From Gnetum montanum (lineage: Eukaryota; Plantae; Gnetophyta), in the NCBI GenBank assembly GCA_015680685.1, contig MNCI01002357.1, positions 305,384 through 369,383 of the forward strand: DNA of 64,000 nucleotides. Reading direction: 5' to 3'. Below the pieces are notes generated by a model. It saw only the letters and a list, made by a program, of their open reading frames with translations, did no database searches and had not been told where the DNA came from. The translations under genes were made by a program, and so were the position numbers. Below are positions 14,278-59,572 of this stretch, piece after piece (the stretch's first letter is position 1; the number at the start of each line of letters is the position of its first letter).

Positions 14278-14282
14278 TAAAC

Positions 14283-22599: not shown

Positions 22600-23270
22600 A
22601 TGGCATAGAAGAAGGGGGAGGAATGTCACTAATGCCATCATTGTCATTCTCTGGTGCCTATAGGAAATAATACATGCAAATATTATTAACCATAGTGATC
22701 ACCAACATAGCCAAATAAAATAATAAAATGGGCATAATATTAAATAAAATTTGCAAACTTGAGGAGATTGAAGAGCAATGTTTTCAAGAGTAAACTTTTG
22801 GAGGCTAGCCTCAAGCTAGTGAAGAATTTCTTCTTTAGTCATGTTAGCCTAGTCAATGTCTCTCAAATACACTCCTACTAGAACCTTCCCCTTCTCCAAA
22901 TCTATCCACTCATGAGGAGAATAGGAAAAGGTAGCCATAGATGTCTCCCCAAATGTAGTCATGTTTTGATGGGTGGAAGAATCAAGAACAACTATCGACT
23001 CCTTGAACCACTTGAAAGCCTATTCAACACCTATACCCTACATGCATAACTCATGTATACATCACTTGATAGCCTCCTCATGCCAAGACATCATATAACT
23101 CTCATTTTCTATCTTGTATTACCTCTTATAAGCGTTTTGTTTCTTGCTTCATCCCAACACCTAAGCATCGTTGTCTCACCACTCTTGTTTCTTGTGAACC
23201 ATCATTTTTATCTTCACATCTTTCTTCAAGTTTCTCTTGGCTATAACAACTCTTCCCTAGATAATGTACC
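22600..23270 (-). pseudogene. Remnant of the last two exons of the antisense accessory gene
   Basis: Minus strand LEKGKVLVGVYLRDID*ANMTKEEILH*LEASL aligns with VDKGKTLADIDLGLDGTDWASVSEEEILCRLEFGL of the 45892-50318 gene; short acidic last exon after TTTCCTATAG. Confidence 0.65.
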
Positions 23271-37301: not shown

Positions 37302-39097
37302 ATGGCTCCCAAGAAAGAACACAAGCATCTAGCACCCACCAAGGTGGACGAAGTGAAGGACACCCTAGTACGTGTGTCGCAGGTGCACGTCATGGTGCAA
37401 CAGGAGACCCCATCAGCTCGGTAAGTTTCTATGCTCCTTTTTTTTTCTATGCTATGGTTATTGCTTCTGCTTTCTCTATTTTTGTTTCTGTGATTTTTGT
37501 TATGTAATCTACATTTTTTGTCATCATTTTTTTGATATTTTGGCCATTACACCGCTACTGTTGCTGATTTGGCCACGACTGGTGTACGGACACTATGCTA
37601 AGGTTGCATGTAGTGTTGCCTAGACTACCATTGTTGTGGCTAGCTTGCCATAGAAGCTTGGGTGATTTTAGCAACTCAACATGCACATAGCATAGTGTAC
37701 GACCCTAAGGAGGGTTTGGCCATGTGCATGATTTGGCAGCGTAACACATGTCTATCACGGTGTAATGCAAACCGTTCTGTCAGGAGGAATATTTTTTGAA
37801 ACTAGTGCAACGCATTGAATTCTTTCTTGTAAAAAGATTTCCTTCGTATTTTTTGCTACACTATATGCATGGAGAGAGTTGTAATATGCTATCTGCTAAC
37901 TGCTAATTCTGCTACGCTATATGTGAATCTCACTCGAACATGACATTAGCATTTGCCATTGTGTTATGTAGGATGGTGCCATTAAGATTGGCAAAATCTC
38001 TAGGATTTGGGAGATGCCTAAATACAATTGCTACCATCCATACAACACTTTTTTTATTGCCCGCCATATGGAAACTTGTTTTCAAAACCCATCAAGAACT
38101 ATTTATTATGCCAGTAGGTGAGTTCTGTAAACATATTCCGCTACGCTATGCAATACTTGCTATGCTAGATAAATGTTAAAGCGTGTTTTTGTTACTAGGT
38201 TTTTCATCAATAAGAATGGACTTCACAGTGATACAGTTGTGTTCACCTTGGCATAGATGGTGCTACGAGAGTTTTCCTCCACTGAAAATATGTGCGTAGG
38301 CGTGATAGGCCAATGCAGTACCAAACCTACCCAACCTAGTACTCCTACATCTACAATAGATGCAAGAAGCTAGATTTGTTGGATGGGGATTGGGCACCCT
38401 TTAAATTGATCACCATTGAATAAGTATTAGTGGATCTTCTACCATTCCCATCACCATTTAAACCTGGTAAGATGAACTATGAGTTATTTTCATGTTCGAG
38501 TATTACTCCTATTTTTATGCTATTTCTACTTTTATCTAAGTTTTTGCTTTTTTCATGTGTAAAGTACTATAGCAGCGAAGAAGTCCGAGAAGGTGACGAT
38601 GATCACCTTTGGACATCATGAGGCCAACATTTACTTCAAATACAAAGAGGTAGATGAGACCTAATGCTGGCTTTGCAATGGGGCCCTGGAATCGTTGACC
38701 AAATACCTTCAGGACACTGGACTCATGGAGTTGTTCCTAGTCATGAATCTGAGCGTCCCTACTGCTTAGATGCTCGACCTAGCCAACTCCTTTTCTAAAA
38801 AGATAGACCGCTTCCACACACGTGTGCATGATATGCAGGTGGTCCTTGAGATCAATGACCCGCTATTCATGGACCTCTTCAGTGTCCCTGCTGATGGTCT
38901 CCCCGGGGGTGTAAAGACCAAAAAAGAGGTGAACCATCAAGGGGACACTAAGGAGTGGCTAGGGGTGGTGAAAGGGTGAAAGGGGATCCTTATGAAAAAA
39001 GCAAAGCCAAAAGTAGCCAAAACCATTTACCCCATATTTTGTGCCTGTGCTTTCCCTCAGCTACTTTTCCCAGGAAAGATCATTGGGATTGAGCAAG
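37302..39097 (+). pseudogene. Antisense accessory gene of the outer element, 5' part (exons ~37302-37420, 37972-38117, 38199-38466, 38573-39097)
   Basis: KISRIWEMPKYNCYHPYNTFFIARHMETCFQNPSRTIYYASR (NIF-like C-half); LMELF..SF..LFSVPADGL..EWLGVVKG; homologous to the nested element's gene, with matching intron positions after the NIF exon. Confidence 0.8.
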
Positions 39098-40344
39098 TGT
39101 ACCGCCTGAAATCGTCGGTCCCCGGTTGGAAGGAAATAGAGACCGTGGGATCGCAGGACCAGAACAGAAGACCCTACCTTCACTTGAGGGCAAGCTGGAA
39201 TGCAACGAAGGCAGAGTACCTTGGGTGGTCCGCACGTGGATCAGACAAGGATTTCCCCAAACGTACACCAAAGTGCTATACGCCGGGATATACGTGAATA
39301 GTGTAGGAAACGTAAACAAAGCGTAAACAGCGTAAAACAGATGCAAACGGAGAGTAAACGTAAGCGGGCGTAAATAGAACATGTATGCCAAATTGACGTA
39401 AACTATAAACAATTTTATGCAACAAATGTAACAATGATATTACAAGATGAGAATACAGTGCACCGGTCTAACGCAGTTGTGGTGAAACACAAGGCGGACG
39501 AAAAGCCCCGGTGGATGGGAGGGCGGCGGGGCTGGTTCATGTTGTATGCACGGCGTAGAAACTATGTGCGCGGCGTACAGGTTTTTCCAGTGTAAGAAGG
39601 TTTTGAGCTCTAGTGCGCAGCGTAATTGCTCCTGGGTATGCTCTGGGATTTTGCCAACCGACCTAGTTGAAGTGGAAAGTCGGGGCTTTTATACCGGTTG
39701 TTACGCTAGACTTGGGTTGGGTGACACGTGGATGTTGACCGGGTGCAAAAGGGCGTAAAATTTATAGTATACAACATATTACATCTGCTGGGCATATACA
39801 CTGCATCAGGTCGGCGTATACGCTGGATGTGTTGGACGAACATGGGTGGAGATGCTATGGACGCTGGGCGTATACGCTGATGGATGTTGGGCATGTACGC
39901 TGGGCGAACACACTGACGGATGTTGGGAGTGTACGCTGGGCGAACACGCTGATAGATGTTGGGCATGTACGTTGGGTGAACATGCTGACGGATGCCGACT
40001 TGCTTCAATTCTTGCTCTTCGGTGTTTTTTTCACTTTTCCTTTGGAGGTTCTGTGCCGGGCGTAAACATTTGTTGTTCCTGCCGAGCGTACAGGTGAAGT
40101 GTGTACGCCGGGCGTGAGTTGGATGTCTACGCTGGGCGTATACGCTGGGCTTATACGCTATGGATGTGAACTTGAGCGTAGACGTCGGGCGTATACGCTG
40201 GCACTACAAACTTAGTGAAAACGAAGCGTTTTGACCTCCCCAAAGTTGCAATCGTGACACCAAATGTAGCCGTAGTTATCTGTGGGTCCCAGTGACCTGC
40301 TTGTTGCTGAAGAAGTACAAAGCTCGGAATTTTGTGGTGTTTCA
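39098..40344 (-). repeat. 3' LTR of the nested element
   Basis: TGTACCGCC...GGTGTTTCA; by manual alignment about 14 mismatches (13 transitions) in the first ~170 nt versus the other LTR. Confidence 0.95.
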
Positions 40345-41385
40345 TTGGTCCCTCTTTGTTGACGCTTGGAGGAATCGACTCGAGAAGTGTTGACAAAGAA
40401 GTGCAAAACACCACAAGTGACTTGATGTAGACTTTGTCCTCTGCCACTTGACTAGACGTCATCGCACCGTGTTCAGTAGTACATGAGATCGGGAAAGGGG
40501 AAGTTTGTATCTGGTGGGTCATGGAGATTGTGGGGATTGATTACTAATCTAGGGGATTATGCAGGGGAAAGGGGATGCCCTGGTGTGCAGCATGCTGATC
40601 CTTGTCGACAGCCATTGTTTAGCAGACTCAGAGTTCAGACATGCAGTGTGCGTCCTTTGGCGGAACAAGGCTCTTGGGTAGTATTCAAGAGAACTTGTTG
40701 GCAAGACCAAAGCCACAAGAGGATGTGTTACATTCTTTGGAGGAACAGGGCCCGTGTTTAATGCTGGCTGGGACCTGTTGGCGGATAGCCAAAGCCATAC
40801 AACTAGATGCTTCTTGACCCTTTTGGGCATGAGTACTTGGTCTTGAGACGACTGCCTTCCCGCCTAGGGCTTGTATGGGAAGTGCCCGGGGTTTCACCTT
40901 TTTGTGTTTTTTTTTTTGGATTTTGCCTTGCTTTTTGTACTCATGCTCAAGTGTCAGGCCATGTGTTGCAACTGCTGTAACGTTTTTTAGTGTGCTCAAA
41001 GTTTTAAATGTATTCAGTGTGTCAGAGGTCGGTAAACAAATAGTGTATACCGGGAGTGGGGATGTACTAGTGAATGGATTGATTTAGTTTTTCCATGTGC
41101 GCTACAAACATTGTCCCATTTTGTTGCTTACGATGAGATGCACTCCTATGCGAAAACCTCTGGGTGTCATCTTGCAAACACAACTCCAAGGAGACAAGAA
41201 AACCATGTGTGAGTAAGCGAGCTTAGATTTTAACGGCTGCAGATGGGACACAAATACTGGAGGAGAGTCTGAGCAGTGTGTGTGCATGGCGGAGATGTTG
41301 ATGAGATTGTTTGGTGATGGGCGATGCAGTGAAATGATTTGGATGAGCGAGTGCGGCTGTGGAGTGAGAGCCGGAGATGAGCATG

Positions 41386-41698
41386 CCAGTTTATAGTCTT
41401 AGCAGACTATGATGAATGCAACGGTGGCAGTTTCACTGTCATACCGGACAAGTGCTAGTTTATCGTCATTGCGGACACTATGGGGTATCAGTTTATTGTC
41501 ATGATGCCAGGACAGTGGCGGTGCCAGTTTTAAGTCGTAACCCAGGACTGTTCTGTGGTATCAGTTTACCGTCATGATTCCAGGACGAGCTATGGTATCA
41601 GTTTATAGTCGTGATTCCAAGACTTGTTGTGGTATCAGTTTATAGTCGTGATTCCAGGACTTGCTGTGGTATTAGTTTATAGTCGTGATTCTAGGACT
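41386..41698 (-). repeat. Array of the YAGTTT hairpin motif downstream of integrase
   Basis: About 9 units such as CAGTTTATAGTCGTGATTCCAGGACT. Confidence 0.9.
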
Positions 41699-41719
41699 TG
41701 CACGTACTTGAGTTTGTAC

Positions 41720-44700
41720 TCAGATGTAGAACGGTTTTAGATACAAATGATTGGTCGGATTGGCAAACTCATTTCCTTCCATGTCAGCGAGCTTGAATAC
41801 TTCGTTGTCGAATGCTTTGGTGACTAAGTAAGGCCCTTCCTAGTTGGCTGAGAATTTTTTCGGGTGTTCTCGAATAGCCTTAAGCACAAGGTTGCCTTCC
41901 TTGATTGGGCGTTTGTTGATGTTATGCCGATGTCGTTGCCGTTGTTGTTTTTGATACCATTCGATCTGGTCAAGTGCACATATGCGCTCTTCTTCCATCG
42001 AGTCCAGGTCAATGATGCATAGATCATTGTTCTGCCCGTCGTCGAGGAGTCCGGAGAGTGTGATCCTTAAAGATGATACCTGTAATTCCAAAGGTAAAAT
42101 AGCTTCTGAACCATAAACCAGACTATATGGTGTTTTACCTGTTGACGTTCGGTGTGTAGTACGGTATGCCCACAATGCGTACATCAATTGCTCGTGCCAT
42201 TTTCTTTTGCTCTGGGTAAGCACTTTCTTGAGTATCGTGATAATCATCTTGTTTGTTGCTTTCGCTTGTCCATTGCTTTGAGGAGAGTAAGGGGAGGAAA
42301 ATGAGTGTTTGATCCCCAGACCATCACAAAAGGATCGAGTTTCGGCACTGCTAAATTGCGGCCCATTATCAGTGATGATTGTCATGGGAATACCGAAACG
42401 GGTTACAATGTTTTCAAGGATGAAATTACATACATGTTTAGAGGTAGTTTTTCAAAGTGGAGCAGCTTCTACCCACTTCGTAAAATATTCGATTGCAGTT
42501 ATGATGAAACTATGCCCTGCAGAAGATGAGGGTGTTATCGGGCTGATAAGGTCCAATCCCCACTTTTGAAAGGGCCACGTGATTTGCACTGTGTGCAATT
42601 CATTTGGTGGTACATGTATTAAATTGCTATGTTTTTGACAAGTGCTACACATTTTAACCTTGGAGAAACAGTCATATTCCATGTGCGGCCAGTAGTAGCC
42701 TAAACGTCTTATTTTCATTGCCATGGCTTTTGGTGTTATGTGTCCTCCACATAGTCCCTCATGTACCTATTCAACAATAGTTTGGGCATCGGTATTACTA
42801 ACGCATGTTAGCAATATGCCTTCGTAGGATCGATGACACAGTGTGTCCCCTACCAGGGTATACTGCTTAGAACGTTTCCACACTGTGTATTTCTGCACAT
42901 TTGTTAGATGTCGTGGTGTTTCACCGCGTAGAAGGTATTCTTTTATGTCATTGTACCATTCTACCGCGTGCGTTGTACTAACAAATGCGATTGGCAGGGT
43001 GTCGAGGGTATCGGTGATTGGTTCAGCACAACTAGTTATGGAGCTTGGCAACGTGTGAAACATGTCAGGTGATATATTTAATGCTAAGGTTGCTAATGCA
43101 TCTGCGATGGTATTGTCGTTTCTGGAAACGTGTTGTAGATCGATGCTTTCGAATCGCCTCATTAGGTGTTTTTCCAAGTCACAGTATGGTTGCAAGTGTT
43201 GGGCTTTGCATGTATAAATGTCTGTGACTTGGTTCAGGACCAGTTGTGAGTCACCTCTGACTACCAGTCATGTGATGTCTGAAGCCAGTGCTTTCATGAG
43301 ACCTCTAAGGAGACCTTCGTACTCTGCTATGTTGTTCATACAGTGAATGTTAAAATGATAAGCAAAGGGTCGGATCTCCCCTGAGGGATAAGTGATAACA
43401 GCGGCTGCACTTCCCCCTCGAGAGGTGGATGCTCCGTCAATGTTTAAGATGGCATCGTAGTCATTAGGCACGATGTCTATAGCACTTATACTCTTGTCTA
43501 GGAATTCCAGCTCTATAGTCGCTTGGTCACGTGTTGGTGATGTAGCCATTTGATTCGCTATGGCTTGACCCTTGACTGATGATTGCGCTACATAGTACAG
43601 GTCAAATTCGGCTATCATGGCTTTCCACTGGGCTATTCGACTGGTTTCGTAAATGTTCCCTATTATGGCTCTTAGCACATTGTCCTTGCAGTATGTAAAC
43701 CTGGTTATGGAAGAGGTAATGTCACCATTTTCTTAAAGAAAAGACCAAAGCTAAACATGACTACTCTATGTCGTTATACTTTTTCTCGTGGGCAACTAAT
43801 GCATGGCTTAAGTAGTATACAGGGACTTCGGTTCCGTCATCTTGTTTCTGGCAAAGCATAGACGCGATTGACGATTCCGAGGTGGCAAGGTAGATGTAGA
43901 ATGGTTTATCATTTTGGGGTGGATAAACTATGGGCAGTGGGGCAAGTGCTGTTTTGATGTTCTCGAATGCTTCTTGGCATTGTGGAGTCCACTCAAAATG
44001 GACATTTTTGCGTAACAGGTGGTTCATAGGTTTTAGTTTGTTGGTGAGTTTTTCTATGAAACGCCTTATAAACTGCAGTCTACCTTGTAAACCTCGAAGT
44101 TCAGTAAGGTTACTTGGTGGTTTCAGGTTTTTTATGGCCTTAACCTTATCGGGGTCTACTCGTATCCCTGCTTCTGAGGCTATGAATCTGAGCATTTTGC
44201 CTATTTTGACGCCAAAGACACATTTTTTTGGATTGAGTCTTAGTTCATACTTTAAACAATGCTTTAAGACTAAGTTGAGGTCTTGTACATGTTGTTCTTC
44301 CATTTTTTATTTAACCACAATGTCATCCACGTAATCGTTGAGTGAGTGTAACATGTAATCGCTAAAGATGAATGTCATCGCTCTTTGATACGTGGCCCCA
44401 GCGTTCTTGAGACCAAAGGGCATCATTGTGTAACAAAAGGTTCCCCATGGTGTCATAAAGGTTGTCCGAAGCTGATGCTTCGGGTTGATTCGTATCTGAT
44501 TGTAGCCCAAGAAGCCATCCATAAAAGATAATAATGCATGCCCCGCAGTCGAGTCAACAAGCTAATCGATGCTGGGTAGAGGAAAATCATCTTTTATGGT
44601 TGCAACATTCAAATCTCGGAAGTCAATGCATAAGCGAATGCTTCCATTTTTCTTCCGGACAATGACCATGTTGGACACCCATTCTGCGTAATCAACAGCC

Positions 44701-45205
44701 CGAATGAAACCAGCTTGATAAAGCTTGGTGATCTCATTGTGAACTACCAATGCTACCTCAGGTTTGACCTTTCGTGCTTTTTGTTTTACTAGCCTTAACT
44801 TTGGGTCAAGAATAATGTTGTGTTGGACAATTCTAGGATCTAACCCAGGCATGTCTGTATAGGACCAAGCAAATTCTTTCATATTTTTCCTAAGCACGTT
44901 TTCAATGTCTTTTGCTAGTTGTGGTTGCAGTAGTGTGCTCAATTTTAACATTTTGATTTCCCCATCTGGCATGGTGATGGGGGTTTCAGTCAACGGATCT
45001 TCGGTGATATTTTCAGCCTCTATGTCAAGGAATTTTGTTATGTCTTCGTAATTGTCTGCTGTTTGTTGTGTTGAGGCTATGACTACGTCGTCCGTTGGTG
45101 AATTTAAATTGATGGAGTTTATGTTAATTTCTCATGTAATTTTTCCGTACGGTCCGTCAATGATTAGCAGTGCTGTTAAGTGCTGGCAGTCCATTGAGAT
45201 TGCTC
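41720..45205 (-). pseudogene. pol: pol: RT, RNase H, archaeal-type RNase H, integrase (few stops/frameshifts)
   Basis: IRLCIDFRDLN..KDDFPLP; MDGFLGYNQI; MPFGLKNAGATYQR; YVDDI; RH KPFYIYL; aRH LNIDGAS..NNIAEYEGL..GDSQLV; integrase WGLDL, TDNGPQF, PQSNGQA, EGPY. Confidence 0.95.
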
Positions 45206-45318
45206 CTTCCAATAAACAAAGAGCAAAATGAGAAGAAGGAGACCGTTCTATGTCTCTTGATAATTTTAAACTATGTGTACTTGCATAATGGTGGATTTTC
45301 ATCACACCGGGATGTACA

Positions 45319-45454
45319 GCAGTTTAAGGCCGTACCGGGCCATAAGCGGCAGTTTAAGGCTGTACCGGGCCAGCATTGGATTGGGAAATGGTAGTTTAAG
45401 GCCGTACCGGGCCATAAGTGATTTGGGAATTGGCAGTTTAAGGCCGTACCTAGC
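45319..45454 (-). repeat. Array of YAGTTTAAGGCCGTACCGGGCC units upstream of pol
   Basis: 4 units with variable spacers. Confidence 0.9.
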
Positions 45455-45639
45455 CATAAGTGATTTAAACGAGAATGTTCAGCCTAAACGTGTAAAATGG
45501 ACGTAATAATCTTTGTTCTTAATAATTTTTAGCATTTTTTATTATTTTTTCTGGCAAATTTTCACGAAAAATAAGTAAAAAGGCACAAAAAGGGCAAAAA
45601 GAAGCAATGGCGGTGCCAGCGTCGACGTCAGCGGGGCGC

Positions 45640-45647
45640 TATATAAA
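45640..45647 (+). promoter_or_regulatory. TATA box of the antisense accessory gene
   Basis: CTATATAAAG in a GC-rich context about 250 nt upstream of ATG 45892. Confidence 0.7.
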
Positions 45648-45891
45648 GGCGGGGGTCCATTTGTTTCTTACTTTGAAAGCGACAGAGCATAAACTGCTAA
45701 AGCGTAAGCGTAGACGATCGCGCTCAGTGTAGATGCCGAAGACAAAACCTAGCGTAGACGCCCAACACTTAAACCCCAGTGTAGACGCCGAAGAGTGACC
45801 CTAGCATAGACGCAGAGTTCAAACTCAGGTGCCAGCTAGACAGTTGTTCTCTTCAGCGTAAACGGATATCGTCAACGTAGAGAAGGCGGAG

Positions 45892-48800
45892 ATGGGCAAA
45901 GGGAAGGAAGTGGAGGTCCAGGGAAGGAAGGGTCCCGACTTGACGTTCTTGGAGGAGACTGAGGCTATGTTACAGGGCCTGCCTAGGCCAAGGATCCCAT
46001 CATGGCCTGTGACATCCCACAGGTAGGTTCCAATCCTTATCTTTGCTGTTATTTTTGTGCTTCCTGTTTTTGTTTGTAGTGTAGACAGTCTCAGCGTATA
46101 CGCCGAGCGTTGGGGGTTTCTAGTGTATGGGGTTTCTTCGGCGTATACGCCGAGCGTAACTGTGGACTGCGTAATTAGTTTCATTGGCATAAACATTTTT
46201 CCTACGTTATTGTTAGCGTAAGTCGTGGCGTCTTGAGTTCCTTTATATGCGAAATCTCGTCAGCATGATTCCTTTGTTCTCAGCGTAAGTTCTGTTTACG
46301 GCGTATACGCCGAGGGTTTATTCGACGTATACGCTGTGCGTGCGCGATTGCCTTTACAGCCTACTCATTTTTCATGTCTCTGGAGTAGCGTAGACTGTTT
46401 ACGTTGGAAGCGAACTTGGGCGTATACGCCGAGGGTTTCTTTAGCGTATACGTTGTACGTGAGGGGTTTGGGCGACAGCGTAAAAACGGTTCATTGTCAG
46501 TGTATACGTTGAGTCGGGCAGCGTATACGCTCAGTGTACAGCGTATACGCTGAGTTTCTACAGCGTGTTTTACGCTAAGTGTAAATAGTTGTGCTGGCGT
46601 ATACGTTGGGTGTAAACAGTTGGCAGAATTTTTTGATTTTAAATGTTGATTTATTGGTGTGAATTTTTGCTTTTCGGGCTGTTTCGAAGCATGGCTGATT
46701 GATTGTAGCGTTGCGATTGGTTGCAGGGACAGTAAGCGCTTCCTTATCGTCGTTGAACTCATCGGGGTATTAACATGGGTTGGCCCCATCGAGGATGGCG
46801 AGGTTCTCCCGGATCTGACCGTGGATAACAACGGGGTTTGGTTCAGGGAGGGCGCTTGTGAATTTCTGTCCTTCTTGTTAGAGAATTTCGAGGTGGCCAT
46901 CTGGTCAAACTTTAGCGAAGTGGTTGCATGAAGCGTGGTTAATGCAATGTTGTCGGGGGCTACGGAGGGCATCATGGTCTTCATAGAAGACATCGACGAG
47001 GGGCCCCTTGTTAATGAGGATGGTACTACCCGCGGGCCCCGGTCAACACGCCCATTAACGCGCGTGTGGGCACTATTGCCGCAAGGGTTGGATTACCTCA
47101 ACAATACATTGTTTATAGCTGCCCGCACACACACCTTATTACAGAATCCTCCTAGCACGGTGTATCGAGTGGCCAGGTAGGACTATTTAAATTTATTATT
47201 TTCCTTTCGCTGCTTGGTATTTGTTTCTTGTCTTGACATATATTTTATTTACAGGCCGAAGACCAACCCGGACGGGACACTTATTGAAGATGAACGAATA
47301 GCTCTTGCTTGCACTGCACTGGAGGCATTCATGACGGGCCCCACCCTTCGTGGAACCGTACTGGGTCAAACAAAGTGTTCGATGGTCTATTTTCATAATC
47401 AGTTTTCCAGAGCATTCGCGATGTGAAAAGCTCGTGAGTGGCTTCACGAAGACTATACAGATAATGGGCCAATTTTCCCTCATAACTTTGGCAGCACCTC
47501 TAAATCTGCCACTAGCGGTAAGTGATAACATTTCTTAGATATGTTAGTGGGTTTGTCTAACTGCTTGAAGTTACGCTGATATAATCCTTTTAAAATGCTT
47601 TTACAGTTGATGTACCTCCTGGTGGGGATCCCGTGACAACAGGACGAACCGAGACAACTTTTTCGATGAAGTTTGGGGAGGTGGCTAAGGCGCAAAAGTG
47701 GTTTCATGAGCAAGCTCCCCCATCTATTACTCATTGCCTGGATGATGCTAGCCTCATGGAGCTCTTTATGATGCCAATTCCTGATGTGTCCATCGGGGAG
47801 ATGATCGGGATCATGGACTCTTTTAATGAGTCTGTCTCATACTACAGCACCCAGATTAAGGGTGTCAAGGTAGTTTTTCATCTGTCGCCTATGTTCTTTT
47901 CCAACTTATTTGGCGTGCTAGCAGATGGTTTAAATGTAGTATTAGACAGAGCTCATAAAGAGCTCTAGACAATTCGTGAGCTGGAAGATTGGCTAGGCGT
48001 GGCCAAGGGTGCCAAGGGGTTCCCGATGCAGGGGAAAGCGAAAGTTGTGGAAGTGAACGAATTATACCCCCTGTTCTGGACATGGGTGTTCCCTAAAACC
48101 CTTTCTCAGGTGAGGTGTCTTGGGGTTGAGGCTGTTCGTGTCATGCGGACTGTCTTGGAAACGATTATGCGATATAACTAGGCCCAATTTTTGTTATCGA
48201 GCATGCACAAGGAGGTAGTGCAGATGCGTTCGAATGTCGAGACGCAGTCCCACTTCACCTTTGTATTCTTCGCCGGTTATCTTCACCGTTTTTCCAAGTT
48301 CCTAGTAGTTTACGCGGACAATAAGTTTGTTCTACGGGATTGGGGTCAACTAACCCGCCTGTGGGTCAATCATTTGTTTGTGACTGCTAAATCCCAAGAT
48401 GCACCCGAAGGCATTGATGAATTCGTCTCTATTACAATGGGGGGATCATCTGGCACTTCTATCCACACACGTGATAGTTTGGGGATAGAGCCATAAGATG
48501 TACCTTTAACTGCTAGACGGGTAGAACGGGTCATCAAGGAGACCATCGGCCAGGTGAAGTCAAAGCTAAAGAGGCCTGAGCGCACGACTGAGGAAGTCTC
48601 GGATGTCAACCGGCCACACGTGAAGTGTATACACTTCAAGATGCCTGGTAAGCAACACTGACTCACTTATTGTTGTATCATTTTCGTTTTGTTTATAGCT
48701 TTTACCTCAATCTCTTACGTGTTATTGATATTTTTGGCTTGATTTTAAAAAGTGAGGAAGCAGGCTTTAGAGACCATCACTGAGGAGGAGGAGACCAACA

Positions 48801-50318
48801 CAGAGAAGAACAACGGGGAGGAGAACCAGGAGAAGAGCCAGGGCAGAGGGATGGAGTTAAAGGAGAACACCACTGAAACCGAACTGTTGGACGATCAGGA
48901 CGCTATCAACCAGATGTTCTGCAGCATCCTTAAGGGAAATCTGGATTTGGGAGACCCCTCAGAGGGTGAGAAGGATCATGGTCCATTTTCATTTTTTATT
49001 CCGTTTTGAATTGCTTGATCAATTGTTAGTTCTATGGTATTTCATGTTTTGATCTTGTTCTGATGAAGGCAGCAAGACCAGGACGGTGCGGTTAGATGTA
49101 CCCATGAAGACGGTTCTCCCTGAGAGGACCGCTGAGGTTAGTTCTCGTATCCGTGAGCCACTTGCTTGGTCAGAAATGCCAAGCAAGAGGGATTTTATGG
49201 CTAGACTTGCAGAGGAAGTTGTTGAACGGATCCAGGAGGCTCATCCTGATATAGGTATAGATCATTAAAGGCTTAGAATCTCACGTCTTGTTTATATCAC
49301 TATTAACACTTGTGTTTTTTGCGTGGGCAGGTGCTCAATTGAAATGGGATCCCTCTGAAAGCATTAGCATTGAAAGTTTAACCATGCTTTCCCCAGAGGT
49401 GGAACAGGTGCCAAGGCCTGTTTATGAAGGGGTTGCAGAAGGTTTTGTGCACAATGCTAAGTCGTTATGGACCTGTAGGCGCTCCATCGAGCAGTTGTGG
49501 CTGCAAATACAGGCAAAAGAAAAGGTCGTCTCTGAGTTGTCAGCGGAACGTGACGATCTAAAGGCTCGGTACGAGTTCACTGCTGCCAGACTAAGTGGAG
49601 ATCGCTCTTGGCAAACGTCGGAGGTTACATACACCAGGTATTGGAACCTTCTGAATTGTCATGCATCGCTAACTCGGAGAATGGCAGAACGGAAAGCCCA
49701 AATTGATCTCCTGAACCTTAAATGTCAAGATTGGAAGGCTTTTTCTTCCAAGGTTCGTAAGTGGGGTCAAGATGAGAAAAGTCACAAACATTATTACAAG
49801 AAGTCGCTAAAAGAGGTGTTTGTTGAAAAGCGCCAACTAGAAATGTTTGTGGAAGGTTTAGGTTTGCGTTCGGCCTTCGATACTTTTGCCCAGAATACAA
49901 CTGTGGAAATGGAGTCACCTACAAGGGTGATCACAACTACGTCTGGGGAAACATCGGTGGGTGAGTTCCCTCTGAAATGCCCTACCTGGTCGGCTGTTGA
50001 CAAGGGCAAGACTTTGGCAGACATCGACCTAGGCCTTGATGGGACAGATTGGGCCAGCGTTTCAGAAGAGGAAATCCTTTGTCGGCTGGAATTTGGCTTA
50101 GGGGGATCTCCTATGGTAAGAGTTTTGTTCTTATGGAGTTAATTTATCGAATAATGTTTAAAAAGTCTTGTCACTCACTTGTTCTTACGCTAGTTGTTTG
50201 TTTTCGATATTTTCAGGATGAAGGTGGTGATGATGCCCAAGAGGCTAGCCCCAGTGGAGCAAGGGCCCCTGACGCTGGTGGATCTAGAGAGGACGACCCT
50301 CCCGCCTCGGATGTTTAG
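45892..50318 (+). pseudogene. Antisense 8-exon accessory gene (~1056 aa): FCP1/NIF HAD-like pseudophosphatase, PMD-like domain, acidic linker, coiled-coil-like region; exons 45892-46022, 46727-47176, 47255-47517, 47607-48647, 48753-48965, 49069-49254, 49331-50115, 50217-50318
   Basis: All seven introns GT-AG with matching phases; spliced length 3171 nt (1057 codons) and no frameshift; five point stops at 46929, 47424, 47966, 48179, 48494, each one transition from a sense codon; homologues in two other elements in the window. Confidence 0.87.
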
Positions 50319-50640
50319 TGTTTTAAATTTTTAAGTTTTTGTTGTTTTGTTTTTTAACTCAGATTTATACGGGAGGTGTGACTCGAACATTTTGAGATGG
50401 ATGAAAACAGTTGAAATTTGTAATTGTACAACATTGTATGTAAGAAAGATATTTTTTTTTTGTTGATTTTGAATCTAATTGTAAACACGACATGACAATA
50501 TAAAATATTTTGGCTTGTTTTTGGGTTTGTTTGCATACACAATACGATAATGTAACATATTTTTGGGTTTACTTTTCTGTTTTAAGCGTGATGTACTAGA
50601 GTGATTATAAGTGAAATGTGAAAAGCAAAACAAAGTATGC

Positions 50641-50868
50641 ACTAATTTAAGGCCATTTTGGGCCAGGTTCACACTAGTTTAAGGCCATTTCGGGCTTCGT
50701 TGTGAACAAGTAATATTTTTGATAAAACAGGGAAGTTTCTTGATTGACCGATCATCTCTGATCGTGGCTAGTTTTATGTCGTTGCGGACATGATAGTTTA
50801 ATGTCATTTCGGACTTCGTGTAGTTTACCATCGTTTCGGATGAAGGGTAGTTTAATGTCATTTCAGAC
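50641..50868 (-). repeat. Array of the YAGTTT hairpin motif just downstream of the gag-protease stop
   Basis: About 6 units of both the GGCC-N6-GGCC and GTC-N6-GAC types. Confidence 0.85.
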
Positions 50869-50888
50869 AGCGGAGTAGTGGTATTATT

Positions 50889-53800
50889 TTAATTTTTTTT
50901 TATTCTTTTTAGTTTCACGTCTTGCGATGTATTAATTGGTATGATTTTATATTCGGCGTCCCCTTCGCTAATCACGTTAAATGATAATTCAGCCCAAGGG
51001 ACGTCTGATGGAATGGATTCTGTGTTAGTGTTTTCAGATGTTTCAGTGTTTGTTGTGGCTTCTGTATTTGTTTCTACATGAGGAGGTGTGTTTACAGTGT
51101 CGAGCGTAGGTATTTCGATTTTAGGAGGTTTTTGTTCCATATTCAAAGGTTTACTGCCTATCGGTAGTTGCAGATTCTTGTCATTTCGGCTAGGCTTTTC
51201 AATCTCGACCTCCGAGCCCTGATCCGTGTCCATATATGACGAAATGATAGGGGTAGCTGCTTCCCTATGTATGATGATTTCACCGCCCTCATAAGGCAGG
51301 TGAATTTCTTGGTGTATAGGGGAAGAGACAGCTCTGAGTTGGGCCAACCAGGGTCTCCCTAATATTAAGTTGAATCCTGGCATTTCATCGACCACTAGGA
51401 AATCGGTAGATGTAGGGAACTGGTTTCCCGCTATGAAATCCAAGGTTATTATGCCTTTTACTATTACGCGTGACCCACTGAATGACTTTAAACATGTGGT
51501 CGCGGTTGGTTTAATTAACTCAGTAAGCCCCAATTGTTCAACGATGGGGTATGGTACAACATTTGTGGCGGCTCCATCATCTACGTGGACCCTATGTATC
51601 TTAAATTGATTTATACGTATCATTATGAACATGGGGGCTGTTGTTATCTCCCCTATTTTCTTGTCCACCTTGATGTTGTCGTCATGGAAGCTTACGGGTT
51701 TGGGAGTAGTCCCGTGAGGCGAATACATCACCGCATGAATGGAGGGTTCATTTGGGGGCAGGTCCTCACTTACCGGGATTGATGTTAACATGCGTACCAA
51801 AGCTTCAAAATGCGTTTGCGATGTCAGAACTAAGTCATATAAGCTTAGTGAAGTATTTTTTTTGTTTCAATGCTTGAGTGACTTGTGTCAAGGCTGTCGC
51901 GAAATCCTTACTGTTGGGGCCATTTTTATCGGCAATGACTGGGTCCATTGGGCCCAATAGTTTTATTTCACGTTTTGCTGATTTGTCATTCTCGTTCGGA
52001 ATTTTCGTTTTAGGTGGTTCATAATTTTCAGATGATTTACCTCCGTTGCCTATGTTGGATTGGTAGTTAGGGGACGACATGGGCATGGAGTTAAGTGGAG
52101 TGGGCTTAGGTGGCCCCATGGCTAGCCGTTGGCGTTCCTTCTCCACACGTTCATGTGTAAGCTTGTCTGCTAGGCGTTCTCGTGTGTGGCGTGGAGGTGG
52201 CGCTGGCTTTGGAGCTTGGGGTTACCCTGGGACCTTTATCACATAAGGAGCTGGGCGTGGTTGCGGTTGGACAATGTCGAATGTTTGAGCTAAAGGCTGG
52301 CCAGGGGCCCTAATAACATAGGAGCTAGGTTTGCCGTGCGCTCGTGAGGTGGTGTGTTGAGGGTTGTTAGGACTTCTGGGTGTCCTAACAACGTACGAGG
52401 TTGGTTTTGGTGGAGATTGGACTTCCGCTATTGCGACAGCGAGTGGTACTCGAACTACGAAAGGTGTAGGCCGCACATGAGGGGTTGATGCACTTGAAGG
52501 AATAACGGGAGGGACACGCACCACGTATGGTTTTTGACTTGTCATGGCGTTGGATGTGGGTACGGCCGAGGGGACTTGGACGACGTATGGCTGCTACGGG
52601 GCACGTGGTGGTTGAAATGCGGGTGTGCACACAGCGGGAGGAATCTGAACTACGAATGGCCTACTAGGTGTTTCCTTTTCGTATTCGGGGTAGACGGTGT
52701 TGATGCGGGGTGCCTCGGAATCATCATCACAATAGATTGTATTGATTACGTACGGTGCCTCTTTAGTGTTCAGGGGATCTTTATACACCCCCATAGCTTG
52801 ATTCTGTGGTTGGACTGGGTTAGCCTCATCAAAAGTGATTTGGCCGTCATCAATCATTCACTGAATATCCTGTTTCAAGGTGAAACAGTAATCCGTACCG
52901 TGCCCGTTTCATTGATGGTAGTCGCAAAAGCGATCCATCCTGAAACCTTTGGGTACAGGAGGCTCATGCGGCGTTGCTAGGCTTGGGTTCTGTACGAGTT
53001 GACAGAACCGGTCATGTCTCTCGATGGCTGCTGGGGATAACTGTTTATGTTTCATTAGCCCAGCCTTCAAGAGTTGATCGAAGAGCTGGAACGGCTTCAT
53101 TGGTAGAGGCGTGTATTGAGAGGGTTCTTTCCTCTCGAAATTTCGCGTACGATTTGTGGAGTTCTGTTGTGATGATGATTCTGGCGCGATCGTGGGGGTA
53201 GGTTTGTTATAGTTAGGGGGAGTTACTGGCGGTTTGTTTGGCTGCTGCATTCCCGCTATCGCCGCTATTGTTGACTTAGCCTTTTCTTTATCCTTTTTAG
53301 TGTGTTGATTCTTAAAGGCTAGGTATGCCAGGTCATGGCTGTTTTGGGCCACCTCTTCTATCTTTTTAATTTGCACAAATGCTTGATTAAGATCACGCAC
53401 ATTAAGGTAGTATAGCTTGGATTTAAAGAAATTGTTAACAGCCCCTTTTAGAGTGGTAAGTAGGTAGGTCTAGGAAATTGGCTCATGTAGTTCATTGAGA
53501 GTAGCACTCCATCTCTAGATGAATTTTTGCACAGGTTCAAGCGGTGCTTGCTTGACCTGTATGAGACTGTCCAGTGTGGCTTCAGGTTTCAAGTTGTACT
53601 TGAACCTGGTCACGAACTGGCGTAATAAGTCTTCCAAGTAGAAGATGGAATTCCTTGGGAGGGCCCGATACCAATCAAGTGCTCTCCCCGCGAGGGACAT
53701 GGGGAATACTCATAGTATGGAGTGGGGCCATGCCTGGAGCAACGCACACTCTAATCTAAATGTTATGAAGTGGGCGTTGGGGTCTGTCTCCCCGTTATAC

Positions 53801-55068
53801 TTAGTTAGCGTTCGTAAGGAGACGCCTTTGGGCAAGGTCAAGGGTGGGACGGAAGAGCTGATGGGGTCATCGTGGTAGAAGTCCACTACCTTCAACTCCC
53901 CGTCGATGGCGGTTTTGAGGCGTTTTACCTTGTCCGTCAATTCTTGCATTAGTTTTTTAGAGTCCACCCAATCTTGTGCACTCGGTGAAGCAACGGGCTG
54001 GGGGTGTGGGGCTGTATACAAGTTAGACTGTTGGGTCGTGGGTTGAAAGGCCGAAAGCTGGGCGATCGGCGGTTGGGTTTGTGGAAAGTTTACAATGGGC
54101 GGTACTAAGGAAGGGATGTTATAAGGGAAGTGTTGTTGTTGCTGCAGTTGGGGCTGTACCTAAGGAATATTGGTTGGTGGTATCGTGTGGGATGGCACAT
54201 GGGGGTGAGAAGGTTGGTGTGACGGCACACCCATCGCTGGCCATTACCCAACCACATTGTGTGAAGGGACTCCCTGTTGGGTTACGACCGTCGAGGGGCC
54301 TGCATGCGTTTGAATATGCGGGATGTAATGAGCGGATGTGGAGGCGGGTATCACGTGTGGAATCCCTATCACTCGGGGTGGGAATGTCACTCCCACGCTA
54401 GCGTGAGGGGGTGGTGCTTGTGAGGACGAGCTCGCAGCTGCAGCAGGGATAATTGTGAGAGGGAATGTGTTAGGTTGAAGGTCGCTCGAGGGAGGAATAT
54501 GCACTAGCGTGGATGTTTCCGGTGGTGGGGCTTGAGCTTGGGTGAGCCTATGATGCTGGAGGGGCAAGATTTCCCCTGCATTCGGATGAAAAATGAGGTT
54601 AACATGCGCTTGCGGGCTCAGAGTGTGGTAGGATTCCTCATGTTCTGATTGGGCAGCAAAGTCATCCTCTTCTTCTAGTTGGGTCTCTAACGCATGTTGA
54701 TCCAATGTGCGGCTCCTTTGCAGGAGGAGCTGTGTGACGAGCTTTGAATATTGCTCCGAAACTGGGATTACATCATATGGGGAAGGGATGAACTCGTGTC
54801 CTCCCCTATAAAAGAGTTCAAACTGCCTTTTTACTTCCATTTCAGCTCGGTCAACAGCCAGGCCAGCTTGTATCTTAATACATATAAAATTATGCTGATC
54901 TTGTGTGATAATGTTGGAGGCTGGATCTCTTTCCTGCAATCTTAGGAACCGACGGGGCCCCGCTGTAGGTTGTACTCCCGGGTGTTGCACGATGGGCTGT
55001 TGAACAGCCGTGGTGTATATCATGTTAGTGGCTTCAGTGGTGGCGACCGTAGTATTTGCAGGGTTCAT
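50889..55068 (-). pseudogene. gag: gag-protease polyprotein of the nested element, ending in a stop before the accessory gene
   Basis: ATG 55068; capsid KYNGETDPNAH..SLAGRALDWYRALP; FCDYHQ.NGH zinc-knuckle-like motif; protease VHVDDGAATNV..FNLILGRPWL. Confidence 0.93.
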
Positions 55069-55805
55069 GATGTGGTTTAGGGTATGACATTGGGTAGAAT
55101 GTGATATTAATGTACTGTGCAGCGTACGGCGTATACACTTTAACTGACAGCGTATAATGGCAGCATATATAGCGTATACATATGTGGCGTATACAGTCAG
55201 CATAGACAAGTCTACGAAAATAGCTCAGCGTATACGCTGGAGAGCGTATACAGCGTAAGACAGGTCCCGACATAAAAGGGGTCACGGCGTAAAAAAGGAA
55301 GCATCGTAAAGCTGGCAACAGCGTGAAATAAGTCAGCGTAAAACAATAACCAGCATCAAACAGGGGATGGCGTAAGACAGGTCATAGCGTAAGACAGGGA
55401 ACCGCGTAAAGCAATGCATAGCGTAAAATAGTGCTCAGCGTAAAAGAAGGCAGCATAAAACAAGGCAGCGTAAATAAGCTCAGCGTAAGAGCAAGTTCAG
55501 GTTAACATAATACTCAGCGTAAAACAATCCACAGTGTAAAAACAAGGCAGCGTATGGTTTTTTGAGGGAATGTTTTAAGAGGAAGAGTGTAAATAGCGAA
55601 CAGCGTAGACGTTGGACAGTTAGCAGACTAGGTTTTCAGATCGGGCTTCGTGGACGCTGAGAAGATTTCAGCGGGAAGCGGCACACGGTTGGTAGCGTAG
55701 ACGCTCGACAGCATAAACGCTGGAAATGTGCGATGTCTTGAATATCACAGCGTAAATGCTGATCAGCGTAGATGCTGGGAGCACGCAGGTGGGGTTTTAG
55801 GCGGA

Positions 55806-55823
55806 GCCCTCCTTCTAGCGCCA
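55806..55823 (-). other. Primer binding site TGGCGCTAGAAGGAGGGC
   Basis: 5 nt from the 5' LTR; shared with the non-autonomous element. Confidence 0.85.
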
Positions 55824-55828
55824 ATTTC

Positions 55829-57079
55829 TATACCGCCTGAAATCGTCAGTCCCCGGCTGGAAGGAAACAGAGACCGTGGGATCGCAGGACGAGAATAGAA
55901 GACCCTGCCTTCGCCTGAGGGCGAGCTGGAATGCAACAAAGGCAGAGTACCTTGGGTGGTCCGCACGCGGATCAGACAAGGATTTCCCCGAATGTACACC
56001 AAAGTGTTATACGCCAGGATATACGTGAACAGCGTAGGAAACGTAAACAAAGCGTAAATAGCGTAAAACAGATGCAAACGGAGCGTAAACATAAGCGGGC
56101 GTAAACAGAACACGTATGCCAAAATGACATAAACTGTAAACAATTTCATGCAGCAAATGTAACAATGATATTACAAGATGAGAATACAGTGCACCGGTCT
56201 AACGCAGTTGTGGTGAAACACAAGGTGGACGAAAAGCCCTGGTGGATGGGAGGGCGGCGAGGCTAGTTCACGCTATATGCGCGGCGTAGAGACTGTGTGC
56301 GCGACGTACAGGTTTTTCCAGCGTAAGAGGGTTTTGAGCTTTGGTGCACAGCGTAATTGCTCCTGGGTATGCTCTCGGATTTTACCAATCGACCTGGTTG
56401 AAGTGGAAAGTCAGGGCTTTTATACCGGTTGTTACGCTAGACTCGGGTTGGGTGACATGTGGATGTTGACCGAGTGGAAAAGGGCGTAAAATTTATAATA
56501 TACAACATATTACATCTGCTACGCATATACGCTAGGCGTATACGCTGAATGTGTTGGATGAACATGGGTGGAGATGCTATGGACGCTGGGCGTATACGCT
56601 GATGGATGCTGGGCGTGTACGCTGGGCGAACACGCTGACGGATGATGGGCGTGTACGCTAGGCAAACACGCTGATGGATGCTGGGCATGTACGTTGGACG
56701 AACACGCTGACGAATGCCAACTTGCTTCAATTCTTGCTCTTCGGTGTTTTTTTCACTTTGCCTTTGGAGGTTCCGTGCTGGGCGTAAACATTTGTCGTTC
56801 CTGCCGAGCGTACATGTGAAGTGTGTACGCTGGGCATGAGTTGGATGTATACGCCGGGCCTAGACGCTGGGCGTATATGCTGGGCGTATACGCTATGGAT
56901 GTGAACTTGAGCATAGATGCCGGGCGTATACGCTGGCACTGCAAACTTAGCGAAAACGAAGCATTTTAACCTCTCCAAAGTTGCAATCGTGACAGCAAAT
57001 GTAGTCGTAGTTATCTGTGGGTCCCAGGGACCTGCTTGTTGTTGAAGAAGTACAAAGCTCGGAATTTTGTTGTGTTTTA
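55829..57079 (-). repeat. 5' LTR of the nested element (termini mutated TG>TA and CA>TA)
   Basis: Colinear with 39098-40344. Confidence 0.95.
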
Positions 57080-57084
57080 GCAAG

Positions 57085-59572
57085 CTTGAGTGATAAGGGA
57101 GGTCATGGAATAGGGGGCCCATTACAACTAGGCTAGGAATCTCTACAAAGGCCTACAAGTTGAAATGGTCAAGCTTTATACAAATCATGAGTCCTGTTTC
57201 AATGTGCATCATGCCTTTTATGTAGCCTTCTTGTGATGTTTCGCGTAATTCTTGGTGGTCCATGAGAATGGATTCTAGGTTATGTAAGATTGTAATTAGA
57301 TTTCCAAACCATGGATCTTCCAAGTCTTCTGGACCACCCGAGCCCAAGATCCCCCAGAAGCTATTAAGAAATCATTTTCCATGACGACTAAGGATCGGGT
57401 GGCCCACAACTTCTGTAGCCAGGACAGCGTAGGCAATGTGCCCCCTGCTGCTATAGGTAGCGTATCACAGGGAAAATGTCTCATTGCGGAGATGGTGGTC
57501 ACCAAGTTGTGGAAAAAGAGGTCTCGTCTAGCTGAGGAGCCTCCCCATACAGAAAAAGAAGATAGGCAGACACTGCAGTTCAAGCTATGTAGGATACAGC
57601 CCCTCATTAGTAAATGCTTTTGTCATTTTGCTTGTTTTTCTACTTATTTGATTAATGTTTGCTACGTTGTGCTATGCTAGGTAGCGTAGTGAAGCATCAG
57701 TTTTGAGTTAATACGCTATGGCCTAATGCGAACTTGGTTTGCTATCAGAGGAAGAAGAGGAGGAAGAATAAGAAGAAGAAGGTGACAAAGAGGTGTTGGC
57801 CCCCAAAACAAGGGTGGCCAATAAAGATGCGGGGGCCCCAATCACAGAGGAAAGGGCCCTGATTAAGAGAGAAGGAGCCCCTGCCACAAAGGAAAGGATT
57901 CCCGTTGACAAAGAAAATGCTCCTACTGACGAGGAGGACGTTTCACCTGACAAGGAGGATTCCTCCATGGATGAGGAGGATGCTAGCACCTGAAAAAGAA
58001 AGGCCCCAGCGAATAAAGAGGAAGCCCGTGTCAACCAAGAAGGAACCTTTGCTGATGATCCCTTTTGCTGAGTACATTTTAGCATCGGAGGAGTAGATGA
58101 ACAGCGAGGATGCTGCCATAGTTTTAAGCCAGCAAGGAGAGGAACTACAACTAGATGCTAGTGAGTTTGATCGTATATTCGACAGTATGTCGATGGGTGA
58201 CCCCCTTGCTATCACCCCTGAGGAATTGCTAGGTAGGATCCCTTACACTGTTGTTTGTGTTTTCCATTAGCTTTATTGTAGTCCATCTTATTCATGATTG
58301 ACGTGTTTGGTTATATGGCAGACACCACCACTAACACTGTAGGACCTTCCTTGATCTAGCTGGAAACATGGGCCGAGACCCCTGACAAGCTTACGTTCAT
58401 GCAGGGGGGTTGTTGACGACATGATCGACTATCTCAAGCAGGTCGATCAGGAAGTGGGTGAGTGAAGTGGCTACGATAGGCTTTTAGCTTGCTATGCTAG
58501 ACTTCTTGAGTTGCCAAACTTTGCTACGCTATTGTGACTAATGTGCTTTTATGTGTGATAACAATCTCTCACCTTAAGTGGGACTCAAAATGAGTAGTAA
58601 AGGTGGACACCATGCCTACATTCCCACGTGAAGTGACTGAGGTGCCTCGTCGCATATACGATGAGGTTAGTAAATGTGTGTTGCACTCGGCATGCTCCTT
58701 ATGGGAGTGTAGGTGTGTGAATGAGGACCTCTGGAAACGGGTCTAGAGGTAAGAGAGAGAAAAGGCTGATCTGACCGCCAAGGTGGGAGACCTCTGTTCT
58801 AGGAATGAGTTCCTCCTAGCTCATGATACCAATGATGGCAGTTGGCTTAGGGCCATCATAGATTACGCAAGATATTGGATGGCTTTGCAATGCAACAATG
58901 AGACCACCCGAGAGATAATTGAACAATGGATGAAAATGGACTTGTTGCCTCAGAAGAACCAGGGTTGGAAGGACTATAGTGCTAGAGTTTAAGAGTGGGG
59001 GCAATCCCAGAAAAACCATAAGCACATGTATAAACTAGAACATGCTACCTATCGTAAACAATACTAGGATGCTTCACTAAAGTTGTATACCCATGAAGCA
59101 TTCCTGGATGCCATTGGTGCTTCTGAAGCTTACAACAAGTTCATGTAGTAAGTGATGGTCAGTGAACCGCCTGAGCAGGAAGTGAATCTTCCCATAGGTG
59201 AGACCACCACTGCCTCCTTTTCTCTGAGACTGCTAAGATGGATGTCCATCGAAAAGGAGAAACCTACAACAAACACTAAACTGAGCGATAGGCACTGGGT
59301 AGATATTACGTAGGCGGAGGTCTGGCATCGCCTCGGGATCGGATCGGATCGCATACCCTGTGGGATAGACGCGGGGCCGTCTTGGGTTAGTCACTTTCTG
59401 CAATGCAACAATTTATGTTTTTCTAGCCTTTGTGTGTTACTCTAGATGACTTCTTCATTTTATGGTGTAGATTCCAAATGAAGAAGCAGGGCCCCTGGAG
59501 AACAGAAATGATGATGCGGAAGAAGTTGATGCAGAGGGAGATGATGCAAGGAAAGATGACGCATGACAGTAG
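57085..59572 (+). pseudogene. Antisense accessory gene of the outer element, 3' part
   Basis: Frame continues across the TSD (IGIEQA*VIREVME*GAHYN*A vs LGVEAVRVMRTVLETIMRYN*A); acidic exon; DYARYW..EWGQSQKNHKHMYK; acidic last exon after GTGTAG. Confidence 0.8.

Follow-up and report, generated by a model that had tools for sequence, protein, structure and literature searches.

A conserved multi-exon gene, antisense to gag-pol and putatively regulatory, between protease and reverse transcriptase of a Tat-type retrotransposon in Gnetum montanum

A 64,000-nucleotide stretch of the Gnetum montanum genome (GenBank assembly GCA_015680685.1, contig MNCI01002357.1, positions 305,384 to 369,383, forward strand; the window in the following) is plant DNA packed with nested Ty3/gypsy elements. 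In one of these, an inner, 18-kb long terminal repeat (LTR) retrotransposon of the Tat type, we identified an accessory gene on the plus strand, antisense to gag-pol, which lies between the Gag-protease region and the reverse transcriptase (RT). The gene itself is conserved and real. Its predicted product of about 1,056 amino acids consists of a dead phosphatase domain of the NIF family, a conserved domain encoded by exon 4, an acidic linker and a coiled coil, and is likely a regulator of its own element. An earlier note, made from the sequence alone, had described the exon-4 block as a plant mobile domain (PMD) fused to a pseudophosphatase and as a candidate anti-silencing factor. Antisense accessory genes of Tat elements are already known; new here are the position of the gene, its introns, the dead phosphatase and a domain of no assigned family.

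Eight exons were predicted for the gene (45892-50318, plus strand), joining in phase to 1,056 codons. The joined frame holds five premature stops and no frameshift, in comparison to 32 to 74 stops in the other five frames. All seven predicted introns are GT-AG introns, T-rich and in phase, and six of them are short (76-105 nt) and AT-rich; for exons 5 and 6, the splice sites were picked among nearby alternatives. The antisense orientation, with introns that point away from the genomic RNA of the element, would allow them to survive the passage through this RNA and thus retrotransposition. The gene is also present in an older, outer element and, as a remnant of its 3' end, in a third element of the window, in the same place and orientation each time, and the proteases of the three gene-carrying elements are 52-59% identical to the inner one. 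Over 156 codons, exon 7 has 38% identity to its outer counterpart, and it showed weak matches of the SMC/Rad50/DivIC type. A chance open reading frame (ORF) was ruled out by the stop counts together with the codon-position pattern described below, and a single-copy capture by the presence of the gene in three elements.

Exon 4 is a single frame of 347 codons, bounded by AG and GT. The second copy of its domain sits in the older element, split by the inner one (38560-39096 and 57081-57600). Using BLASTP, 54 of 166 residues of the first half were identical to the outer copy (33%, E 3e-26), and 45 of 168 in the second half (27%, E 2e-19). Conservation spans nearly the whole exon and is strongest in the first 265 codons, which bears out the block of about 250 amino acids conserved between two families that the earlier note had reported. 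Nucleotide identities at codon positions 1, 2 and 3 were 0.51, 0.65 and 0.33 for one half of the exon and 0.43, 0.61 and 0.29 for the other. The same order, second above first above third, was observed in four of four blocks (second positions 61-68%, third positions 15-33%). The exon-4 block is under selection at the protein level, with third codon positions that are saturated. The motifs quoted in the earlier note were recovered, namely LMELF, SF, LFGVLADGL/LFSVPADGL, WLGV.KG, YP.F, FP and YN.A, but the bracketed W of the last one is a stop in both copies. As a side aspect, the inner element was inserted into the conserved exon of an accessory gene of a related family; over the 5-bp duplication, the two parts of this gene can be joined again without loss of frame.

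Sequencing reads of relatives add information on the gene model. Family DNA contigs concentrate on the exons, with a median depth of 16,177 (11 exon bins) versus 875 (7 non-exon bins), a depth that does not equal copy number. In RNA runs under the organism label that matched best, intron 7 is spliced in relatives (7 reads in run X14, 3 reads in run X15; 0 contigs in the DNA run X1), and the GT-AG joint at this intron fixes the plus strand as the transcript strand. Run X11 was strand-biased over the gene, with a summed depth of 147 versus 3.7 (46 versus 1.9 without three pile-up bins), and its direction fits plus-strand RNA under the usual library convention. Coverage by RNA was thin, with 100, 71 and 261 reads. 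Regarding the proposed fusion of the exon-4 domain to the pseudophosphatase, one phase-consistent frame connects both in the splice model, but no RNA joint was found between the NIF exon and exon 4; the fusion is accordingly given here as predicted.

Table 1. Coordinates of the inner element, its antisense gene and the related gene copies (window positions).
Feature	Position	Strand	Basis
Inner (host) element, 18-kb Tat-type Ty3/gypsy LTR retrotransposon	39098..57079	-	LTRs, target-site duplication, pol order
Degenerate pol of inner element, with RT, RNase H, a second RNase H of archaeal type and integrase	41840..45131	-	Pfam
Spacer from pol to gene, with YAGTTTAA array and, as presumed, the antisense gene's likely promoter	45132..45891	+	
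Exon 1, predicted, ATG at 45892	45892..46022	+	GT donor, phase; family DNA depth peak
Intron 1, predicted, 704 nt; rich in palindrome GCGTATACGC; CpG observed/expected 1.58	46023..46726	+	splice model
Exon 2, predicted, 1 in-frame stop: NIF/FCP1-like HAD domain lacking the catalytic aspartates	46727..47176	+	Pfam PF03031
Exon 3, predicted linker; 1 in-frame stop	47255..47517	+	splice model
Exon 4: conserved domain of ~265 amino acids, predicted mostly helical, and weaker-conserved tail; 3 in-frame stops	47607..48647	+	
Exon 5, predicted, acidic (27% D+E); alternative 3' end 48980	48753..48965	+	splice model
Exon 6, predicted	49069..49254	+	splice model
Exon 7: open frame, predicted coiled coil; donor confirmed by RNA	49331..50115	+	
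Exon 8, acidic, carries stop	50217..50318	+	intron 7 spliced in RNA reads of relatives
Spacer from gene to gag-protease: YAGTTTWA array	50640..50888	+	
Gag-protease region of inner element	50889..55224	-	own stop before accessory gene
Outer (older) element, 5' half of homologous gene: NIF remnant and first half of conserved domain	37303..39097	+	
Outer element, 3' half of homologous gene	57080..59570	+	
Third element (gag-protease on plus strand): last two exons of the same gene, antisense, just after protease	22600..23010	-	

For exon 2, we obtained a marginal Pfam match to NIF (PF03031; E 1.5e-4, 21.9 bits at a cut-off of 21.8), a sole PDB match to UBLCP1 (3shq; E 0.12, residues 43-143) and a weak NCBIfam match to TIGR02245 (HAD-IIID; E 0.21). 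Exon 2 shares with these phosphatases of the C-terminal domain (CTD) type the NP motif after motif IV. In contrast to them, exon 2 has no ubiquitin-like domain, and the catalytic FDD of UBLCP1 aligns to FIA, which reads FIAA in the inner and FIAR in the outer copy. The first strand, FLIVVELIG, contains no aspartate; this is where we presume the DxDx(T/V) motif would be expected, outside the aligned range. The simplest reading of this sequence is a dead HAD domain. An active phosphatase was ruled out by the loss of the catalytic aspartates in both copies, and the predicted pseudophosphatase of the earlier note is thus supported.

The assignment of the exon-4 domain to a PMD-like family found no support at the level of sequence. 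As controls served 81 Tat loci, in which ORFs with PMD, DUF7745 and Transposase_28 passed Pfam in 7, 5 and 8 of 38 scanned. Neither domain copy matched any Pfam family at E up to 10, including PF10536, PF24924, PF20167 and PF04195. Profile-profile comparison with hhalign resulted in probabilities of 0.2 and 0.1 against PMD/DUF7745 alignments and likewise 0.1-0.2 against Transposase_28 and integrase. Using unfiltered hidden Markov models (HMMs), all 12 scores against PMD-type profiles fell within the range of 300 shuffles (best 23/300), whereas 7 of 8 leave-group-out PMD controls beat all shuffles and the remaining one was reached by 2 of 300. The power of this comparison is limited, and a very remote link is conceivable: the PMD profiles are shallow (10-14 sequences), a profile of a single subgroup missed the other subgroup in two of two cases, and an attempt to deepen the profile added only four proteins. 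The N-terminal hallmark block (helix, W/Y, F, hairpin, T/P-T-L-E/D, LG.P..G) reached z values of -0.74 to 0.11 in comparison to 7.2-23.5 for the controls; the likeness to PMD hallmarks is one seen by eye only, with scores at chance level. There was also no Pfam, profile-profile or unfiltered HMM signal for Transposase_28 (PF04195), and no match of either copy to Transposase_32 (PF20167), for which the Pfam score was the only test. The motif spacing of the domain is presumably nearer to Transposase_32 than to PMD. Taken together, Pfam, profile-profile, targeted HMM and hallmark-block tests were all null while the PMD controls passed, and the domain is, by sequence, not a PMD. Among the controls, Ogre-type 5' ORFs (L006:2037-3713 (+), P0125) passed both the PMD and the DUF7745 cut-offs of Pfam, which links these two families.

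Structure prediction was less informative. AlphaFold, run on three-row alignments, yielded unusable models with a predicted local distance difference test (pLDDT) of 30.2 and 32.3. A Foldseek search with these models against BFVD and PDB returned nothing at E up to 0.001 and only generic helical hairpins; PMD is without a sequence relative in the PDB. The best VIA-align Z of 6.9, over a helical hairpin of 61 residues, is meaningless at such model quality. At the hallmark block, the pLDDT-32 model shows a helix, a beta-hairpin and a helix, which we take to be the order in PMD and Transposase_32. According to published reports, the PMD-C domain and the DUF1985 domain of VANC have a predicted fold in common (bioRxiv 10.1101/2024.09.27.615353; PMC13547354), and a fold can therefore outlast the sequence signal of a family. 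Together with these reports, the layout of domain and coiled coil, the position in the integrase tree (see below) and the low-confidence helix-hairpin-helix point towards a shared fold. That the domain has a PMD/VANC-like fold without sequence signal is possible, although we consider it somewhat less probable than the opposite.

Comparison with 1,630 candidates of 609-2,000 amino acids, with 1.84 billion cluster representatives (E up to 0.001), with the PDB sequences and with 50 pattern matches in metagenome contigs (0/50) brought up no relative of the domain. The best hit in 2,008 ORFs of the 81 Tat loci had an E of 0.46, and NCBIfam gave only a chance-level match. Using tblastn, no match was obtained in 84 loci, a search that also covered 3 viral contigs from a short motif scan for Transposase_32. 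In the ESM Atlas, a 69-amino-acid open stretch of the outer copy had no usable match and exon 7 had matches of 0.84 or less, and neither result is evidence of novelty. Since coverage is poor for the transposon proteins of plant lineages without annotation, the absence of relatives is weak evidence for a novel domain. A further contig, L001, is listed as viral in IMG/VR; it is a retrotransposon of the Retand type from a plant and carries an antisense ORF similar to Transposase_28.

The LTRs of the host element (39098-40344 and 55829-57079) differ by a Kimura two-parameter (K2P) distance of 0.084 and are flanked by the 5-bp target duplication GCAAG (39093-39097 and 57080-57084). According to Pfam, a second RNase H (RVT_3, E 6.6e-20) lies between RT_RNaseH and rve. 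This archaeal-type RNase H (aRH), flanked by RNase H (RH) on one side and integrase (INT) on the other, together with the 5-bp duplication, places the element in the Tat clade of Ty3/gypsy, and the order of RT, RNase H, second RNase H and integrase is the one given for Ogre and Retand (PMC6317226). The protease is fused to Gag and terminated by its own stop. From protease to RT, the gap measures about 6.3 kb in the inner and 6.2 kb in the outer element (insertion removed); of 84 loci searched, 37 other Tat loci gave both matches, and in every one of them the gap is 163-1,502 nt. Pol is set about 5.7 kb apart from Gag-protease (45132-50888) and might be made by way of a very long intron in sense direction, as in Ogre, or from a start of its own. 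The Gag-protease C-terminus carries, after a variable linker, a conserved PW.ELPF-like motif in three elements (50889-51000; 22037-22160; ~60220-60260), which may have a part in processing or in switching to Pol.

The integrase was most similar to one Logan protein (67%); Cryptomeria proteins reached 42-44% and elements of angiosperms about 40%. In a quick integrase tree of 110 rows (rows covering less than 230 residues dropped, 28 of 120 protein matches included, midpoint root, without REXdb references), the two window elements and the Logan protein formed a long branch of their own with a support of 100. It lies on the side of the Tat elements bearing PMD/DUF7745, away from those with Transposase_28, and outside both the Transposase_28 and the DUF7745 groups.

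The non-coding DNA around the gene is rich in short motifs. YAGTTTAA occurs 26 times with 7.9 matches expected in a shuffle test, 24 of them on one strand, and is found in the 3' untranslated region (UTR) besides both gene flanks; in three elements it sits inside arrays of different period. The density of YAGTTTWA was 6.6-13.8 per kb in four gene-flanking spacers versus 0.2 per kb in 81 other Tat loci, with no match in either pol region. A second motif, the palindrome GCGTATACGC, was counted 28 times (0.34 expected); it lies in the LTRs and the 5' UTR as well as in the upstream spacer and intron 1, and the observed/expected ratio of CpG amounts to 1.1-1.6 in LTRs, UTR and intron 1. Short motifs, chosen after inspection, are thus arrayed one-way in non-coding tandem repeats of the family, as described for the targets of VANC, which are same-orientation motif arrays in non-coding tandem repeats (PMC5735166). 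Two further observations concern these repeats: arrays in the 5' UTR are rich in AGCGTA (55253-55474 and 13836-14061; periods of 17, 15 and 40 nt; 26.6 and 8.6 per kb), and an 8-kb derivative without pol or accessory gene keeps a YAGTTTAA array.

Our tentative proposal, which we place ahead of the alternatives below but regard as possible and not yet as probable, is a trans-acting regulator that binds DNA motifs of its own family and favours expression. The exon-4 domain would form the nucleic-acid-binding core and recognize the short repeated motifs in non-coding DNA, the coiled coil may oligomerise the protein on arrayed sites, and the dead HAD domain could dock a phosphorylated partner without cleaving it. 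Several points weigh against this proposal. DNA binding is not readable from a domain without family assignment. The motifs were picked after looking and matches within an array are non-independent, so the shuffle test overstates the enrichment; moreover, tandem arrays are common in Tat/Retand elements, with about half of the clusters reported to have them (PMC11963269). CpG decay in the LTRs, an indirect test, revealed no trace of methylation protection in this copy: 23 of 58 CpGs within 30 nt of CG-rich motifs had decayed versus 16 of 39 elsewhere (Fisher p 1.0). In the thin RNA reads, joints were listed for one of seven introns and for none of the other six. No RNA read was 99% alike to the window copy and most were below 90%, so the expression belongs to relatives. 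Finally, a strand-biased motif fits an RNA signal equally well.

This last point leads to a protein that acts on the RNA or the particle of the element, similar to retroviral accessory proteins of the Rev type. The strand-biased motif, located in both gene flanks and the 3' UTR, would then be bound in genomic RNA, and the protein would control how this RNA is exported or packaged, where integration takes place, or whether the 6-kb region between protease and RT is removed. The second motif argues against it, being a palindrome in LTRs and promoter-like regions, and palindromes are more typical of DNA sites. With a stop of its own at the end of Gag-protease, the production of Pol requires either splicing or an initiation apart from it; Ogre has a spliced intron at this position (PMC4408406), and roles of this kind have been proposed for antisense extra ORFs (PMC7264820). 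Overall, we rate an RNA or particle function as rather doubtful. An elaborate form of the DNA-binding proposal, which we consider unlikely, is a retrotransposon counterpart of VANC: a far-diverged fold of the PMD/DUF1985 type would read the motif arrays of the family, and the dead CTD-type phosphatase would grip phosphorylated RNA polymerase II or a chromatin partner, so that silencing is lifted for autonomous and non-autonomous copies. VANC of the VANDAL (Mutator) DNA transposons is likewise an accessory protein beside same-orientation arrayed motifs, and the motif in the window also begins with YAGT (PMC5735166). In contrast to VANC, the present gene belongs to another transposon class, its domain has no DUF1985 match, and the CpG decay gives no sign of protection in this copy. 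The version of the earlier note, a true, far-diverged PMD that acts as anti-silencing factor and one-chain counterpart of MAIN/MAIL1-PP7L, appears quite unlikely to us. A globular domain followed by a coiled coil matches the PMD-CC (coiled-coil) extra ORFs of Tat lineages (PMC4408406), and both the low-confidence helix, beta-hairpin, helix model and the reported fold sharing of PMD-C and DUF1985 speak for it, but all sequence tests were null. In the host system, too, a presumably inactive phosphatase is paired with a chromatin-type domain (PMC9899485, bioRxiv 10.1101/2024.09.27.615353); these are, however, separate host proteins needed for silencing of transposable elements, unlike the single predicted chain encoded by the element. 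PP7L is a presumably inactive phosphatase of the PPP family (PMC9899485), whose fold is unrelated to the HAD/NIF fold of exon 2, and the parallel drawn in the earlier note is thereby reduced to an analogy.

Two other explanations concern the relation of gene and element. The gene might restrain the element, with its antisense RNA or protein limiting transposition as a copy-number control. Its transcript is antisense to the genomic RNA over about 4.4 kb, and this route has been proposed (PMC7264820). However, selection on the protein makes RNA alone insufficient, and families with the gene are highly repeated according to DNA depth, which renders self-restraint improbable. Even less probable is a passenger, i.e. 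a captured host gene or the gene of a nested DNA transposon without a function in the retrotransposon. Its introns and its NIF domain do suggest a cellular or DNA-transposon origin, and the 8-kb derivative spread without the gene. On the other hand, the gene occupies the same place and orientation in three elements and its protein is conserved despite saturated third positions; no host homologue was found among the 1,630 candidates and 1.84 billion representatives, and the only short inverted repeat in the window is far from the gene.

Comparison with known accessory genes further defines the present one. Extra ORFs with PMD or PMD-CC lie antisense at the 3' end in TatIII and TatV and in sense at the 5' end in TatIV/Ogre (PMC4408406, PMC6317226). 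The window element shares with them the RT-RH-aRH-INT order, the protease fused to Gag, the globular domain with coiled coil and the antisense direction. It differs in the location between protease and RT, in seven predicted introns, in the N-terminal dead NIF domain and in a globular domain that fails the PMD/DUF7745 sequence tests. The antisense ORFs with Transposase_28 (PF04195) of Retand, Grande and RIRE2 are also conserved across copies, situated beside tandem arrays and proposed to be regulators (PMC11963269, PMC7264820), and gene23 of Grande is cited there as nuclear and with its own promoter. Unlike the window gene, which has no Transposase_28 signal, they lie between pol and the 3' LTR. 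More generally, known antisense extra ORFs of Tat elements are located either upstream of gag or in the interval from pol to the 3' LTR (PMC7264820, PMC11963269, PMC6317226). Enzyme capture by LTR elements is known as well: orchid Ty3/gypsy elements, of a lineage related to Tat, have the fold of a host enzyme, AlkB, established as an extra ORF, in that case active and close to host proteins, whereas the enzyme in the window is predicted dead and very diverged (PMC9289625). Transposase_32 is found in Athila (PMC11728184). In open-licence literature, searched mainly by title and abstract, neither an antisense gene of several exons located between protease and RT nor an LTR element with a NIF domain was found to be described, and NIF terms are absent from five supplement files of PMC6317226 (17,418 characters, without the large element table).

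The window contains additional repeats. An LTR element on the minus strand (6238-16325; 2-kb LTRs, 88.5% identical) carries gag-protease only, without pol or accessory gene; with the same primer-site and purine-tract flanks and a YAGTTTAA array, it is likely a non-autonomous derivative. A long-repeat pair (1827-3934 and 27476-29608; blocks 97% and 87% identical, N runs, 25.6 kb apart) flanks the small and the third element and possibly represents the LTRs of a further element. A 97-nt match (94%) between 30043-30139 and 63904-64000 may mark the LTRs of the outer element.

In large plant genomes, few unexplained genes are as common as the extra ORFs that Tat, Ogre and Retand elements carry. The gene described here adds a slot between protease and RT to their known locations, and it is an intron-rich gene of the type that is missed by surveys of ORF length. 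Its recognisable dead enzyme domain and the candidate cis motifs make a direct binding test possible. Should the protein indeed lift silencing, LTR retrotransposons would join the Mutator DNA transposons in having anti-silencing that is sequence-specific.

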